The notes beneath the pieces were generated by a model. It saw only the letters and a program-made list of their open reading frames with translations. It did no database searches and was not told the DNA's origin. Below are positions 50,622 to 55,821 of a stretch of DNA of 64,000 bases, piece after piece. A program made the position numbers and the translations under genes. Origin of the DNA: a virus; IMG/VR virus record IMGVR_UViG_2511231141_000002; one strand, 5' to 3'. Position 1 is the first letter of the stretch, and the number at the start of each line of letters is the position of its first letter.

Positions 50622-50793
50622 GACCTGAGTCAGTAGGACTTCCCACAGTCTGTGGTCGCTGACGAGATCCGGTCGCGGGTCCCAACGCCAATCATGTGCG
50701 CATGAAGTGATGCTCTCACCACCTGTTATTCGTCGAAATGCGTGTGAATCCTACCACTAAATCTTCCAGCCAGTACGACACATTGTGATGTCC

Positions 50794-50919
50794 GCTGTTT
50801 TCACCCGCTACCACGGCGGGCAGCGCACAGCGGACGAAGCGGCCATGCCTTGCCATAGCTTACCTTACCACACCACGCCTCGCCTGGCCGAACCGCGCCC
50901 AGCCTAGCCTCGCCATGCC
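50794..50919 (-). ncRNA. GGY-NN pentamer RNA C (16 units + structured 3' tail)
   Basis: 15/16 units GGY; NN = AT GA TA TG GC TC CA GA GT GT AA AA AT AA AT CG. Confidence 0.85.
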
Positions 50920-51382
50920 ACGTAAGGAGTTAGGGCAGCGTGAGTTCTCACCCGATGGCGTCCCGACAGGCGCGAACGTGTCTGAAGCGCGGAACACTCG
51001 CTTTTGCCGTGTCCCACGATTTTGCGCCTGCCGAACGCCACGGTCGGGCGGTGCCTCCGCCGCCCGGCGCAGCGCACGAACTGCTTGGGACAACAGCGCG
51101 CATCAGGCGCGTAATGATGCAGCTCGCGCGCCGGGCACGGCGGCGGAGAAAAGGGTTCTGGGATTATTCAGTTGCCAAGGTCCGCTCTGACGCGGCACAT
51201 CGCCTCATGAGTGTTCATATCGTGCTGTCGTGACGGCGATACGACCCGCGCCGGGAACGCGCGCTCGGCGTCCCTGGTGTCATTGGTGTGGGCGTCGTCA
51301 GACACCCGAGAGGGTTCGCCCCTCCACTCTGTACCGAAGACCTTCGGTACAGGGCGCAAGGGCGAGGGCCTTGCGCAAGCCA

Positions 51383-52009
51383 TTAAAACGGCTTCCAGTA
51401 TGGTTTGATGTCAGGGAACCGCGTCCTGCCGTGTTGGCCGCTGTTCATCAAATCCGCCAAACTCGGACCATCGGTCGGAATCCCAATAGCGTCATACCCC
51501 GCCATGAGATTCGCGCTGACGATGAGCAGGCGCTCAATCATCAGGTCAGACAGGCGATCCTGCAGACGGTGAGCGGCATCGATCAGAAGCTTCGCCTGCT
51601 CTGTCCTCACGTTAAGCTCCATGACTTTCAGTTGTTTATCCGCTACCTCGCACTGCTCGCGACGTTCAGGCGTCTCGTACTTGCCGGTCTTGCGGATGGA
51701 GGGCAAGACTTCGTGGGTGACCCAGCGCTTAAAGGCCTTCGCCTCAGGCTTGCGGCTGCCCAAGATCAGTGAATACAAACCGGCTTCGTTGATGATGGTC
51801 ATGTTCTGTTGACCGCCGGGGGTGTGAATTGAACTCACACCCTTTTCATCCTCGTCGATCCGCTCCAAGGCTTTACGATCCAACTCAAGAATCACAAGCA
51901 CGTCAGCAGCCACCCACCACGGTTCATCGTTAATCATGACGACTCGGATTCGATGGCCTTTGAACATCCATTCCATCGTTTGGTTTCCGCTCTTGTCCAC
52001 AGGTTGCAT
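51383..52009 (-). CDS. BRO-N domain antirepressor
   Basis: RIRVVMINDEPWWVAADV...INEAGLYSLI..SRKPEAKAFKRWVTHEVLPSIRKTG. Confidence 0.93.
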   Translation of the reverse strand: MQPVDKSGNQTMEWMFKGHRIRVVMINDEPWWVAADVLVILELDRKALERIDEDEKGVSSIHTPGGQQNMTIINEAGLYSLILGSRKPEAKAFKRWVTHEVLPSIRKTGKYETPERREQCEVADKQLKVMELNVRTEQAKLLIDAAHRLQDRLSDLMIERLLIVSANLMAGYDAIGIPTDGPSLADLMNSGQHGRTRFPDIKPYWKPF

Positions 52010-52096
52010 GGTATCCCTCCTGAAGATCTTGCGATTAGAAGTTGCCATTTCGGTCTGGGCCGAAAAGATTCGACCCATGGCGCAAGGGCGAAACGC

Positions 52097-52319: not shown

Positions 52320-52655
52320 CTACACCGGAAGCTGCAACCCCCGACACCCGATCACCCTGCCCTCTTCGTCCAGGATGGCCTCCGCAGGGCTAAACACATC
52401 CGTTCGCCCCGCCCTCGCCGCAGCCTGCGCCACCAGCGTCGAGGCGACGTACACCGTGTCCTCCTCCGGATCCGGCAACTCGACAACTTCACCAAACTCC
52501 GTGCTGAAGACCGGGATACCATCAAGCACATCAATTTGCTTCGATGTGCTCGCCACCCGTGCCACGATGCCAGAAGGCGGGATTCGTGCGATGGTAGTTC
52601 CATCCGAGCCGATGAATGTGAGTTCGTGTGGTGTCAAATTGACAATCCGATGCAT
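52320..52655 (-). CDS. NLTPH-family protein (possible Crn4-like ring nuclease)
   Basis: NLTPH...VARV...LP.P...YVASTLVA...R.D...GRVIGC; AAGGAGG RBS; function from recall only. Confidence 0.5.
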   Translation of the reverse strand: MHRIVNLTPHELTFIGSDGTTIARIPPSGIVARVASTSKQIDVLDGIPVFSTEFGEVVELPDPEEDTVYVASTLVAQAAARAGRTDVFSPAEAILDEEGRVIGCRGLQLPV

Positions 52656-52742
52656 GCTATTGTCCTCCTTGGTCCGATTTCTGTCGCATCCTCAAATTCC
52701 TAATCAACCTCGTAGGAGCCTTCTTTTCGCGCCCCTCCGCGC

Positions 52743-52827
52743 GGCGCTCAAAGTACGGACTCGAACCGCAAGTCTCCACGGGGTGATCAGTCCCGTGTCA
52801 ACCGTGCCGCCTGCACCTTTGAGCGCC
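52743..52827 (-). ncRNA. tRNA-like cloverleaf element (not a canonical tRNA)
   Basis: 11-bp acceptor-like stem, GTGC/GCAC arm, CACGGG/CCCGTG arm, TGCGG-TTCGAGT-CCGTA T-arm. Confidence 0.55.
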
Positions 52828-52908
52828 CGGCGCAGGGGCGCGCCCTGCGCGCTCTCTAGGCGTTGACAAAGGGAGGTTCACCCACTGTAACAGTGGGCTA
52901 TGGTGCCG

Positions 52909-53140
52909 GCTGTTTTCACCCGCTACCACGGCGGGCAGCGCACAACCGGCGAAGCGACCATGCCTTGCCATAGCCTGCCGAACCTGACCACGCCTCAGCC
53001 CGCCTCACCAAGCCATTCCAGACCCTACCCCACCGAGGCTTGCCGTGCCACACCCGGCCATGAACGTTGGAGCGGTTCTTCGCCGCCCCGACCCGCCTCC
53101 GAGACACCTCGGAGACACGTCGCGGAAGCGAAGCTTCCGC
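52909..53140 (-). ncRNA. GGY-NN pentamer RNA B (leader + 21 units at 52955-53059 + tail)
   Basis: 17/21 units GGY; NN = CG GT AC AA TC GG AG CT AT TT GA GG GA GT CA TC AG AT AA AT CG. Confidence 0.87.
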
Positions 53141-53149
53141 TCAAGGCAC

Positions 53150-53770
53150 TCACTCCACGTCGTCCTCCAACACCTTATACTCCACCACCTGAAATCTTCC
53201 AAACATTGGCCTATAATCTCCAATTCCAACCAACCTTCCCGCTTGAACCAGTAGGTCATAGAGCAGTTCCGGACTGATATATTCTGGAAGAAGACACTCA
53301 ACTTGAAATTCAACTTCCCACCCTGGTAACAGCGCTGGACGAACCCTGGTAACTCCCGCTCGTTGAACTAAAACACGGCGTCTATCAAGAAAGTCTGGTT
53401 GTGCTTTTCCCATTGAAGCCAGCCACGGCGTCACGATAAATGCAGCTTTAGATAAATCTGACATTGACTTTCTTGGCGAGCGAGGATCCTGCTTGAACTT
53501 CGCCGCGTTCACGAGCGCCTGATGCAGGTAGACACCGGGAATGCAGATTTCGCCGTCTTCGTTCCGGTAAAGGTACGCTTCCCAGTTGTCCGTCTTCTTC
53601 ATCGCGCTGCCCTTGGCGGCTTGCGCCTTGGCTTCAACATCCTCACAGTCCCATCGATGGAATAATATAGGCGTCGATCCCTTCAGTCGCACAGCCGCCC
53701 GATACGGCGTCGCGAAACGAACATTGTCTCCGTCAACCGTGTAGCCTATAATGGTATTGGCAACCGACAT
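53150..53770 (-). CDS. RAMP/Cas7-like RNA-binding protein (Vipr-like)
   Basis: VRLKGSTPILFH first strand, CIPGVYLHQAL (cf. RAMP YIPGSSLKG), C-terminal G-rich loop GRLVGIGDYRPMFGRF; flanked by GGY-NN tracts. Confidence 0.8.
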   Translation of the reverse strand: MSVANTIIGYTVDGDNVRFATPYRAAVRLKGSTPILFHRWDCEDVEAKAQAAKGSAMKKTDNWEAYLYRNEDGEICIPGVYLHQALVNAAKFKQDPRSPRKSMSDLSKAAFIVTPWLASMGKAQPDFLDRRRVLVQRAGVTRVRPALLPGWEVEFQVECLLPEYISPELLYDLLVQAGRLVGIGDYRPMFGRFQVVEYKVLEDDVE

Positions 53771-53831
53771 TCGTCTTTCACCCTTTCGTTTAGGATGGAG
53801 CGGCGCGAACGCCGCTCTTTTGTTGTTCCCG

Positions 53832-54030
53832 GCTAATTTCAGACACTACCTCGGTGTCCAGCGCTCAACCGGGGAAGCGGCCATGCCACGCTCTACCACG
53901 CCGAACCATGCCACACCATGCCCCGCCTCGCCTGGCCAGGCCACGGCAAGCCATACTTTTGGAGCGACCTTCGCCGCCCCACGCCACCCCCGAAGGATTC
54001 GGAAGTGGTGTGCGGAGGCGAACCCTCCGC
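53832..54030 (-). ncRNA. GGY-NN pentamer RNA A (leader + 15 units at 53878-53952 + tail)
   Basis: 13/15 units GGY; NN = TT GT CT CA GA GG AT GT AT TC GT AG GT AT CG. Confidence 0.87.
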
Positions 54031-54033
54031 TGT

Positions 54034-54861
54034 TCATGCTGTTTGTCCGGCTGTTTCGCCTTGTTGTGTCTCTTCTGTTGACGAACCATTGGAGTTCTCC
54101 ACGTTGACTTGCAGATAATCTTCAATCCCCACCGTGATCGATTTGTGCCGTGCTTCAAGCTCTTTTCCTATCGACACGACGCGGTACTTTTCCGCTGGAG
54201 TCAATTCCCGAAGTATCTTCGGAGGTTGCAATTGACTCCATACGAACGCGCCATTTCGTTTTGTCTCCAGCGAAAGTTCGATTTCATAACTGCTCACCAG
54301 TTGACCACGAAAGCGAAGCGCGCTGACAAATTGATCCCACGCCCGATGACTCGAAGGTGGCAGTCCGAGAATCGCAGGCACTTGCGAATTTTCTTCCAGA
54401 AGATAGATTCGTCGAACGGTTTTGCATGCTTTCCCTCTTCCACCATTCGGATCACTACCAAACTGATCAAACGGACAACCCTGACACTTTCGATATGAAA
54501 TGAGTCCATCGTCCGCAACGTAGCGTCCGATCTTGCCATCGTGACTCGTGCAGAGCGGCGGCGCACTTTCACCTTCGTTCTGAGGCGCAAACAGCACTCG
54601 ACTTGTGTGAAAAAACGGGATTCTGACTCTTAATTTCTGAATAATTTCTCCAGTTGCCTCGTTTTGGAAGGCGGCCGCTTGCGCAACGATCCGATATCTT
54701 ACGGGAAGAATTTCGGCGTTCTCTTCCAGTTGCGCGGCATCTTGCATGGTCTCAGCGTATTGTTCGAGTGAGATTCCTTGAGCTTCGAGCTCCTGCGCCT
54801 GTTCGACCGTCAACCCGAGCTTCTGAAGCAGATTCGGATCGTACTGTGCCAGTGTGGTCAT
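54034..54861 (-). CDS. Phage protein, putative Zn-binding ssDNA-binding/annealing factor
   Basis: C.S.DG...CQGCPFDQFGS...GKACK..RRIY...LPPSS; follows the exonuclease. Confidence 0.6.
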   Translation of the reverse strand: MTTLAQYDPNLLQKLGLTVEQAQELEAQGISLEQYAETMQDAAQLEENAEILPVRYRIVAQAAAFQNEATGEIIQKLRVRIPFFHTSRVLFAPQNEGESAPPLCTSHDGKIGRYVADDGLISYRKCQGCPFDQFGSDPNGGRGKACKTVRRIYLLEENSQVPAILGLPPSSHRAWDQFVSALRFRGQLVSSYEIELSLETKRNGAFVWSQLQPPKILRELTPAEKYRVVSIGKELEARHKSITVGIEDYLQVNVENSNGSSTEETQQGETAGQTA

Positions 54862-54894: not shown

Positions 54895-55821
54895 TTACGC
54901 TGTCTCAGTGAGTTCGTCATGCGTTGTCGAACTGACGAAGAACATCGACTCTCGTGCACCTTCCACACCTAGGCAGAGTGGAAGGAATGGACAACCACCA
55001 TATTGATGGCAATTACTGGTATTGTGACGAATCACACCCGAACGCGCTTGCCAATTGCGTTCCAAGCACTCCATCCAAAGTTCGCTTTCAAACTGTTTGA
55101 TCTGTTCTGGGGCTCGGATCACCTCGTCTTCTGACAAGTACTTGTCGGGGTTCGACTCGTACTCCGCCAGGAGCCGGTCCCGGAAGTCCTCCCAGGTTTC
55201 CACCACCTCTCCATTGCGCCGTTTGGGTTCCATGCGGCTCTTCTGCACAGCTCTCACGATTGCACCTGCAATCGGCCTGTCGAAGACCCGCGACGCAGCA
55301 TATACATATAATGTTAATTGTTGGGACATACCGTAACTCTGTTTGAACTGTTCGATGGAGGCCGTGGTCTTGTTCTCAAGAATCCACAGGTTTCCATGTT
55401 CATCTTCGCAAATCCCATCGATCTTTCCGCCCAGCGCGTACTTTCTCGACTTGTGCCCGGTGGCGGGATTCAAGATTGGAATTTCAAACTCTCTCTCAAC
55501 CGCTACCAACCGTCGCGGCTTGAAATGTCGAACTGCGAACCGAATCATGCATTCGGTGCGGATGCGCTCAAGCTGGAGTTTGTACCGCTCCTCTTCACTC
55601 TCTGGCCGGATCCAGTCCAGCGTCTCCAAGCCCGTCCTCACCGCACCGTCCTCGTCAACCTCGCCCCGCTGCCACAACTCCAACCCCCGATGCCACGCGC
55701 TTCCAATTGAGAGCGCCCAGGAGACCTCGCGCGGGCGAAGACGTTCCACATAGTGGTAGTGTTCTTTCTGCGGGCACTGCTGCCGCATCGCGATGCGGCT
55801 GTGTGTCAGTAGTTCCACCAT
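54895..55821 (-). CDS. PD-(D/E)XK exonuclease (RecB/Cas4-like fold, recombination)
   Basis: CPQKEHY, GSAWH, GKIDGI...ENKT, C..Y..CPFLPLC. Confidence 0.88.
   Translation of the reverse strand: MVELLTHSRIAMRQQCPQKEHYHYVERLRPREVSWALSIGSAWHRGLELWQRGEVDEDGAVRTGLETLDWIRPESEEERYKLQLERIRTECMIRFAVRHFKPRRLVAVEREFEIPILNPATGHKSRKYALGGKIDGICEDEHGNLWILENKTTASIEQFKQSYGMSQQLTLYVYAASRVFDRPIAGAIVRAVQKSRMEPKRRNGEVVETWEDFRDRLLAEYESNPDKYLSEDEVIRAPEQIKQFESELWMECLERNWQARSGVIRHNTSNCHQYGGCPFLPLCLGVEGARESMFFVSSTTHDELTETA

Follow-up and report, generated by a model that had tools for sequence, protein, structure and literature searches.

The DNA considered here is a 64,000-nucleotide (nt) stretch from a virus, IMG/VR record IMGVR_UViG_2511231141_000002 (the window), in part of which an early prophage module of an Alicyclobacillus host, with A. 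sendaiensis and A. fructus among its relatives, runs with all of its genes on the minus strand. This module contains a Viral Interference Programmable Repeat (VIPR) locus, and at two places in it, leaders A and B, three abutting RNA hairpins stand between the stop codon of a protein gene and the repeat tract of a guide RNA (vrRNA). The triple hairpin tracks gene-to-noncoding-RNA junctions (11 of 11), and not guides as such. With a probability of about one half, judged from sequence, it is a boundary element of the VIPR operon: a host RNase would cut at the junction, the hairpins would cap the 3' end of the message, and ribosomes would be kept out of the guide. According to the two preprints that introduce it, VIPR was first described only in 2026 (10.64898/2026.04.26.720920, 10.64898/2026.04.26.720927). 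The locus is thus a member of a recently described system, and we found no description of its triple-hairpin junction module: term searches of the 2026 VIPR preprints returned no hairpin leader and no account of vrRNA 5' maturation, the hammerhead-bearing types aside.

Architecture of the leaders

The preliminary description had reported the same three-hairpin architecture just after a stop codon at both repeat arrays, and this proved correct. The three hairpins abut each other in both leaders, and hairpin 1 begins 3 nt past the TGA of a gene for a 275-amino-acid (275-aa) protein in leader A and 9 nt past the TGA of vipr in leader B. Hairpin 1 reads GCGGAGG-GUUCG-CCUCCGC in A and GCGGAAG-CUUCG-CUUCCGC in B, hairpin 2 reads ACACCACUUCCGAA-UCC-UUCGGGGGUGGCGU and GACGUGUCUCCGAG-GUGU-CUCGGAGGCGGGUC, and hairpin 3 reads GGGGCGGC-GAAG-GUCGCUCC and GGGGCGG-CGAAGAA-CCGCUCC, respectively. 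The short spacing of 8-9 nt reported between hairpin 3 and the first GGC was also found, as a linker of 8 nt in A and of 9 nt in B (Table 1).

Together with homologues from related genomes, these leaders form a set of 10 distinct sequences from four species of one genus, found at 11 genomic places. Their linkers measure 7-13 nt and are mostly A/U-rich and G-poor, and the leaders themselves have stabilities of -46 to -56 kcal/mol at 37 C and of -31 to -41 kcal/mol at 55 C. The minimum free energy (MFE) fold of leader A consists of the three hairpins (-46.3 kcal/mol, z -5.3); this leader scores 93.4 bits with R2, the covariance model of the leader, and leader B scores 72 bits.

Table 1. Positions of the leaders, vrRNAs and neighbouring genes in the window.
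Feature	Position	Strand	Remarks
Leader A	53961-54030	-	70 nt; hairpin 1 54030-54012, hairpin 2 54011-53981, hairpin 3 53980-53961
Linker A	53953-53960	-	AAAAGUAU, 8 nt; G-poor, AU-rich, single-stranded; from hairpin 3 to the first GGC (53952); candidate cleavage site
vrRNA A repeat tract	53880-53952	-	15 NNGGY units, 13 with GGY in phase
vrRNA A 3' tail	53822-53895	-	Model R1 95 bits; the first ~16 nt of the model overlap the last repeats of the tract
Leader B	53069-53140	-	Hairpin 1 53140-53122, hairpin 2 53121-53090, hairpin 3 53089-53069
Linker B	53060-53068	-	AACGUUCAU, 9 nt; from hairpin 3 to the first GGC (53059)
vrRNA B repeat tract	52957-53059	-	21 units, 17 with GGY
vrRNA B 3' tail	52899-52972	-	Model R1 102 bits
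vrRNA C	50784-50919	-	Tract 50842-50919 (16 units), tail 50784-50857; no class-1 leader
Class-2 leader relative	51308-51374	-	8 nt after the BRO-N stop; heads a ~460-nt structured region before vrRNA C
PD-(D/E)XK exonuclease gene	54895-55821	-
275-aa gene, probable vipr-accessory gene (vap)	54034-54861	-	Upstream of leader A; no Pfam family
vipr, 206-aa RAMP protein predicted to coat the vrRNA	53150-53770	-	phmmer against PDB; also matches phrog_4652
111-aa protein gene	52320-52655	-
BRO-N antirepressor gene	51383-52078	-

Structure, covariation and strand

All 10 leaders fold 4.0 to 7.3 standard deviations better than dinucleotide shuffles, and the three hairpins are the MFE fold in 8 of them. 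RNAalifold yields the same three hairpins from a plain MAFFT alignment, which was fitted to no structure. In a model-fitted alignment, 95.7% of the cells are paired under the three-hairpin structure, as compared with 44-53% when the partners are slid. Pairs that changed on both sides number 10, versus 3.9 in shuffles, and none of 500 shuffles reaches 10. The covariance analysis that the preliminary description had proposed as a check thus supports the three hairpins, although the signal is uneven and comes mainly from hairpin 2, where double changes affect 9 of 13 pairs and no pair is invariant. By contrast, hairpin 1 shows one double change (G-C to A-U, with G-U intermediates), and the changes in hairpin 3 are solely from G-U to G-C. 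The earlier statement that the sequences diverge while pairing is kept is therefore accurate for hairpin 2 and not for the other two. Hairpin 1 and the 5' arm of hairpin 3 (GGGGCGGCGAA) are nearly invariant, while hairpin 2 and the neighbouring NN positions of the tract have drifted, which points to a sequence-specific constraint.

At the same places, model R2 scores 72-93 bits on the gene strand and 33-37 bits on the opposite strand, and many of the leader pairs are G-U. Taken together, this strand gap and the frequent G-U pairs indicate that the gene-strand transcript is what folds. A 63-aa open reading frame lies over leader A, but a protein-coding role was rejected: the leaders are 70, 71, 72, 75 and 76 nt long, so that their lengths differ by non-multiples of 3 and the frame shifts, which excludes a conserved reading frame. 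In addition, the ATG that overlaps the stop codon in leader A sits in a different frame in its counterpart A', from a second prophage.

Distribution of the leaders

Among 45 Alicyclobacillaceae genomes, model R2 reaches its 72-93 bits at exactly 11 places, all in four Alicyclobacillus species, and no other strong match was found in these genomes. These places are 11 of 11 junctions between a coding sequence and a vrRNA, seven after the 275-aa gene and four after vipr. All 11 leaders begin 1-13 nt past the stop codon, with hairpin 1 beginning 1-3 nt after it at the junctions of the 275-aa gene, and the GGY tract starts 7-13 nt after the leader. The second prophage, which lies in the same genome, carries copy A', 84% identical to A, and copy B', identical to B (L002:795-866).

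At other vrRNAs the leader is absent. Neither of the two vrRNA-to-vrRNA junctions of the same loci (in genomes G009 and G013) has it. It is likewise lacking before the five tandem vrRNAs of genome G027, where a single hairpin follows the vap stop, in phage DSL-LC04 (58% Vipr identity), and at the vrRNAs of the SUSP1-like phage wV8, most of which have a conserved AU-rich direct repeat instead. All vrRNA 5' flanks in the family share one plan, in which a stable hairpin precedes a short single-stranded linker with little G. A blastn search of the locus against 50,697 phage records gave no match, and pattern scans of IMG/VR for the tail and the leader gave either nothing or chance matches only. 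A metagenome scan with an overly loose leader pattern returned at least 120 stretches, none of those listed having a GGY tract behind the match, which is no evidence of absence. Four public sequencing runs with parts of the locus, all of them contigs, include related variants from a hot-spring metagenome and no new variants of the leader.

Besides these leaders (class 1), a related class 2 was recognized, whose sister copies score 29-33 bits with R2. Copies of class 2 follow the stops of the BRO gene and of a homologue of the 111-aa gene, ahead of another noncoding stretch, and are also found in the second prophage, G002 and G009. In the window, the region that the class-2 copy heads (50920-51380, minus strand) comprises about 460 nt that are free of open reading frames, densely paired, and lead to vrRNA C. 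The arrangement of BRO stop, class-2 triple hairpin, structured region and vrRNA recurs in the second prophage, G002 and G009.

Identity of the system

Three traits identify the locus as a VIPR system and the arrays as its vrRNAs: the NNGGY tracts, the covariation in the 3' tail, and the match of a 206-aa protein to SUSP1 Vipr. As the two preprints outline it, a vrRNA in which GGY and NN alternate is coated by Vipr, a small RAMP protein, with one protomer per repeat, and the vrRNA ends with a conserved structured tail (10.64898/2026.04.26.720920, 10.64898/2026.04.26.720927). The 206-aa protein matches PDB entry 36pp_D, "SUSP1 Vipr protein", with an E value of 1.6e-7 (phmmer). Its G-loop GIGDYRPMFGRF aligns with GVGDWRPRFGRF of SUSP1 Vipr (GDYR versus GDWR; D177, W178, R179), and its R144 aligns with the thumb arginine R138; the second of the preprints names the G-loop and the thumb arginine as the residues that hold GGY in SUSP1 Vipr (10.64898/2026.04.26.720927).

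Measured against the pentamer definition of at least 4 tandem YNNGG / GGY-NN units, the in-phase tracts adjoining vipr count 15, 21 and 16 units. The definition further comprises vrRNA expression, binding by Vipr, and NN pairing with DNA under the 1-nt skip rule. These NNGGY tracts, A, B and C, are the only ones within the window, and across the loci studied such tracts hold 13-22 units. In the tail that follows them, an 8-bp stem closes around a hairpin of 5-6 bp with a GNGGUA loop, and covariation is seen in both stems. The covariance model of the tail, R1, scores 95-102 bits in the window, has 21 matches in five genomes of the family (E 2.5e-23 to 1.1e-5), and located vrRNAs in three more Alicyclobacillus species (G002, G009 and G013) and in another genus of the family (G027). 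In most tails (52899-52972, 53822-53895 and L034-L040), NACCA(C/U)A and another, variable hairpin come after the closing stem, and the ACCA behind the stem resembles the acceptor end of a tRNA. Two other readings of the tract, as a TRAP-like ring-binding RNA or as two-tier G-quadruplex beads, are superseded by the published Vipr filament. A pairing of hairpin 3 with a CGCUUC segment of the tail, examined by eye, was inconsistent between A and B and was dropped.

A proposed boundary between message and guide

The exonuclease gene, the vap-like 275-aa gene, vrRNA A, vipr and vrRNA B onward appear to be transcribed as a single RNA. Between 50700 and 56500 neither a minus-strand promoter nor a minus-strand U-tract terminator was predicted; with no such promoter and no U-tract at the hairpins, the vrRNAs must be cut from a longer RNA. 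The order exonuclease gene, 275-aa gene, leader, vrRNA and vipr is kept in G000 (twice), G009 and G013. RNase III (rnc), RNase Y and RNase J are all encoded by the host. In Firmicutes, sites that combine a stable hairpin with a short single-stranded linker poor in G behind it are of the kind that RNase Y or RNase J attacks.

The analysis shows the structure of the leader, the strand that folds, its conservation, its strict position at gene-to-vrRNA junctions and the identity of the system; from these we infer a cut, its enzyme and the product that retains the hairpins, as follows. A host endoribonuclease, most likely RNase Y or RNase J acting within the linker, would cut at the junction between gene and vrRNA; alternatively, RNase III might cut the paired block, which is able to refold into one rod of about 26 pairs. 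The cut would free the vrRNA with its 5' end a few nucleotides before the repeats, as in the SUSP1 system, and Vipr would afterwards coat the released GGY/NN tract. The upstream message, vap or vipr, would keep the hairpins at its 3' end, where they would shield it from 3'-5' exonucleases, and before the cut they would hold terminating or sliding ribosomes out of the guide. In three distant VIPR loci of the same class (G289, G112 and G281; L047-L049), whose Vipr proteins are 27-30% identical, self-cleaving hammerheads occupy the position of the leader, and a cut is thus expected at this position.

The processing or loading signal suggested in the preliminary description is borne out in that a real RNA structure is formed by the transcribed strand at the 5' edge of the vrRNAs of an apparently polycistronic early operon. 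It does not extend to a general signal for guide release or loading, given that the tandem vrRNAs of G009 and G013 and those of G027, DSL-LC04 and wV8 have no leader. Since the leader stands at every gene-to-guide junction and at no guide-to-guide junction, a boundary element fits better.

Several observations weigh against this reading. The module is dispensable for guide maturation as such, because the tandem, G027, DSL-LC04 and wV8 vrRNAs obtain their 5' ends without it. Hairpin 2 alone, with 13-14 bp, is short for RNase III, and the longer duplex of the rod is no better than expected by chance for hairpins of such composition. Finally, the invariance of hairpins 1 and 3 could partly reflect shared descent, because all 10 sequences come from four species of one genus.

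The interest of the boundary element is that a compact covarying RNA sits exactly where the cut must happen, and only where a guide follows a translated gene. Experiments on it can directly address which RNase of a Firmicute host matures the guides, whether the hairpins end up with the message or with the guide, and whether guide release is linked to translation. It also offers design information for the polycistronic expression of vrRNAs in Gram-positive hosts and thermophiles. Its reach is limited, as the module was found in four species of a single genus and has a putative function.

Alternative explanations

In the main rival, the mature vrRNA would retain the hairpins, which as a handle or cap at its 5' end would block the 5'-3' exonuclease RNase J1 and fix where the Vipr filament ends on that side; the 275-aa accessory protein or Vipr may bind them. 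The near-invariance of hairpin 1 and of the 5' arm of hairpin 3, set against a freely drifting and compensated hairpin 2, suggests such a sequence-specific recognition. The product downstream of the cleavage site in hammerhead-type arrays also retains a 5' hairpin, and RNase J1 is controlled by 5'-proximal structure (PMC4838370). However, the tandem vrRNAs and vrRNA C have intact tracts and tails without the module, and SUSP1 vrRNAs, of about 100 nt, consist of repeats and tail with no long 5' extension. On balance, a handle on the guide seems unlikely, if less so than the alternatives that follow.

Two further proposals depend on the second fold, the rod, which was first seen as the MFE fold in two leaders. 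In this fold the 3' half of hairpin 1 (UUCGCCUCC) pairs with the 5' half of hairpin 3 (GGGGCGGCGAA), GCGG pairs with CCGC, and hairpin 2 is extended into one rod of about 26 pairs. The broader proposal, which we consider doubtful, is that vrRNAs of this clade are matured by a host double-strand or single-strand RNase recruited by a dedicated, translation-adjacent module flipping between hairpins and rod, so that guides would be released only from translated messages. If true, this would constitute a new route to a CRISPR-like guide, the functional counterpart of tracrRNA plus RNase III and of the hammerheads found in other types of VIPR. A little less credible still is its more specific form, a two-state switch read by the terminating ribosome and coupling guide release to the translation of vap or vipr: the ribosome at the stop would cover the 5' arm of hairpin 1, the freed 3' arm would pair with the 5' arm of hairpin 3, and the rod would expose or create an RNase III site. 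The start of hairpin 1 at 1-3 nt after the stop at the 275-aa-gene junctions would suit such a mechanism. In every leader the rod lies within -0.6 to +5.9 kcal/mol of the three hairpins at 37 C (-1.8 to +4.4 at 55 C), all substitutions but one fit both folds, 95.8% of the cells pair in the rod, and the rod is the MFE fold in those class-2 copies that were folded. Yet permuting the order of base pairs within hairpins 1 and 3 gives equally good cross-pairing (p 0.19-0.74), so 5' arms rich in G and 3' arms rich in C suffice to explain the rod. Moreover, no rod-specific compensatory change occurs within class 1, and the sole double change in hairpin 1 (G-C to A-U) favours the hairpin fold. The rod, or a bistable switch, was consequently rejected as a selected feature: it is physically possible, but its cross-pairing does not exceed the pair-order permutation null, and it is kept as a minor rival only.

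It is rather improbable that the hairpins act on transcription or DNA only, either as a factor-dependent terminator or attenuator that controls the relative amounts of mRNA and guide, or as a DNA palindrome that could be a recombination hot spot, a site for a protein or a single-strand origin. The module does form a dense GC palindrome, and directly repeated leader-vrRNA units flank vipr, which was apparently lost between them in G002; this loss implies that the leader-vrRNA repeats do recombine. Against this, the U-tract is missing, and the frequent G-U pairs and the strong strand asymmetry argue for RNA. Termination at the module would also silence vipr, as no separate promoter serves the genes and vrRNAs downstream. 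An intrinsic (Rho-independent) terminator was rejected, because the GC-rich hairpin lacks a U-tract and hairpin 3 is followed by a linker of the AAAAGUAU or AACGUUCAU type.

A new self-cleaving ribozyme in place of the hammerhead of other VIPR types is very improbable: the module occupies the position of the hammerhead, and hairpins 1 and 3 and their loops are highly conserved, but no Rfam ribozyme is matched even at E up to 10, and abutting hairpins without junction nucleotides, with conserved unpaired bases only in two short loops, leave no plausible catalytic core. Rfam searches of the whole window at the gathering score, and of 52500-54200 at E up to 10, returned nothing relevant, and the hammerhead core motifs (CUGAUGA, GAAA, UH) are absent from the leader sequence and present in L047-L049.

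Comparison with known systems

The closest relatives are the type II VIPR systems of Escherichia phage SUSP1 and of a Pseudomonas fulva prophage (10.64898/2026.04.26.720920; structures in 10.64898/2026.04.26.720927, PDB 36pp). The locus in the window shares with them the G-loop and thumb arginine of the Vipr RAMP protein, vrRNAs that are built of GGY/NN pentamers with a conserved structured tail and that flank vipr on either side, and a location in a phage or prophage. By contrast, its Vipr shares only about 30% identity with the SUSP1-like copies, its tracts are longer (13-22 versus 9-16 units), and the tail fold is different. The 5' flank differs too, being the triple hairpin right after the stop here and an AU-rich direct-repeat motif in wV8. 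In this Felixounavirus (L284 1270-1330, 2540-2720), the repeat AAAGGUCUUU..GGGUCUUUUAAUGAGGU precedes three of the four tracts seen and is a candidate signal for 5' processing in a host with RNase E.

VrRNA arrays interspersed with hammerheads are attributed to VIPR types I and V (10.64898/2026.04.26.720920, fig. S19). They resemble the present locus in having a structured RNA directly 5' of the GGY/NN tract that separates, here presumably, the guides from the remaining transcript. However, the hammerhead self-cleaves, has a CUGAUGA and GAAA core and precedes every guide, whereas the triple hairpin is without that core and stands only before guides that follow a protein gene. Loci L047-L049 also contain an accessory gene of the HNH type, and each of their guides has as its 3' tail the GAAAC-hairpin-GUC part of the next ribozyme. 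With hammerheads in these distant loci and an AU-rich motif in wV8, each clade has its own solution for the 5' flank.

Outside VIPR, the module recalls the RNase III hairpins of the early mRNAs of T7 (R1.1 and others) and SP82, the latter sites being those of Panganiban and Whiteley 1983 as cited in PMC4838370. In both cases intercistronic stem-loops lie in a phage early operon; in T7 and SP82 the hairpin stays at the 3' end of the upstream message after the cut, and the host of SP82 is also a Firmicute. Those are single hairpins with an internal loop and proven cleavage, whereas here three hairpins abut, cleavage is putative, and the downstream product is a guide RNA. As for the imperfect duplex of about two helical turns typical of RNase III, hairpin 2 offers 13-14 bp, and the rod, whose energy differs from that of the three hairpins by +5.9 to -0.6 kcal/mol, offers about 26 pairs; its cross-pairing is not above chance. 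Type II CRISPR, with tracrRNA and RNase III, and the Cas6 hairpins of types I and III are similar in that a paired element beside the guide sets the cut from the precursor. Here, in contrast, no second RNA and no Cas6-like nuclease is evident, and the CRISPR repeat of the host (GTTGNTCCGCCGAGATCGTCGG) is unrelated to the leader, so that mimicry of host CRISPR repeats (Racr-like, with Cas6 processing) was rejected.

Further features of the locus and its relatives

Primase and helicase genes also belong to the minus-strand early module. In three prophage loci of genome G002 (L036, L037 and L040), the exonuclease gene, the 275-aa gene, the leader and one vrRNA are kept, and vipr had no match anywhere in this genome with the query used. 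This looks like a loss of vipr and one vrRNA through recombination between directly repeated leader-vrRNA units, which left orphan guides.

Between the tail of vrRNA A and the start of vipr, a hairpin at 53797-53818 has a T-run on the plus strand only, and it therefore reads as a terminator of antisense transcription into the guide. After vrRNA B lies a tRNA-like element (about 52745-52826, minus strand) with an 11-bp acceptor-like stem and a canonical GGUUCGAGUCC T-arm, for which ARAGORN makes no call. It is absent from the otherwise identical copy B' of the second prophage, where a short hairpin stands in its place. In G027 the five tandem vrRNAs (L034, 5160-6020, minus strand) are spaced about 180 nt apart, each with a tail, ACCAYA and a terminal hairpin, and the one hairpin that follows the vap stop carries a loop rich in G, GGGUGGGUGGUUGGGG, which could form a quadruplex.

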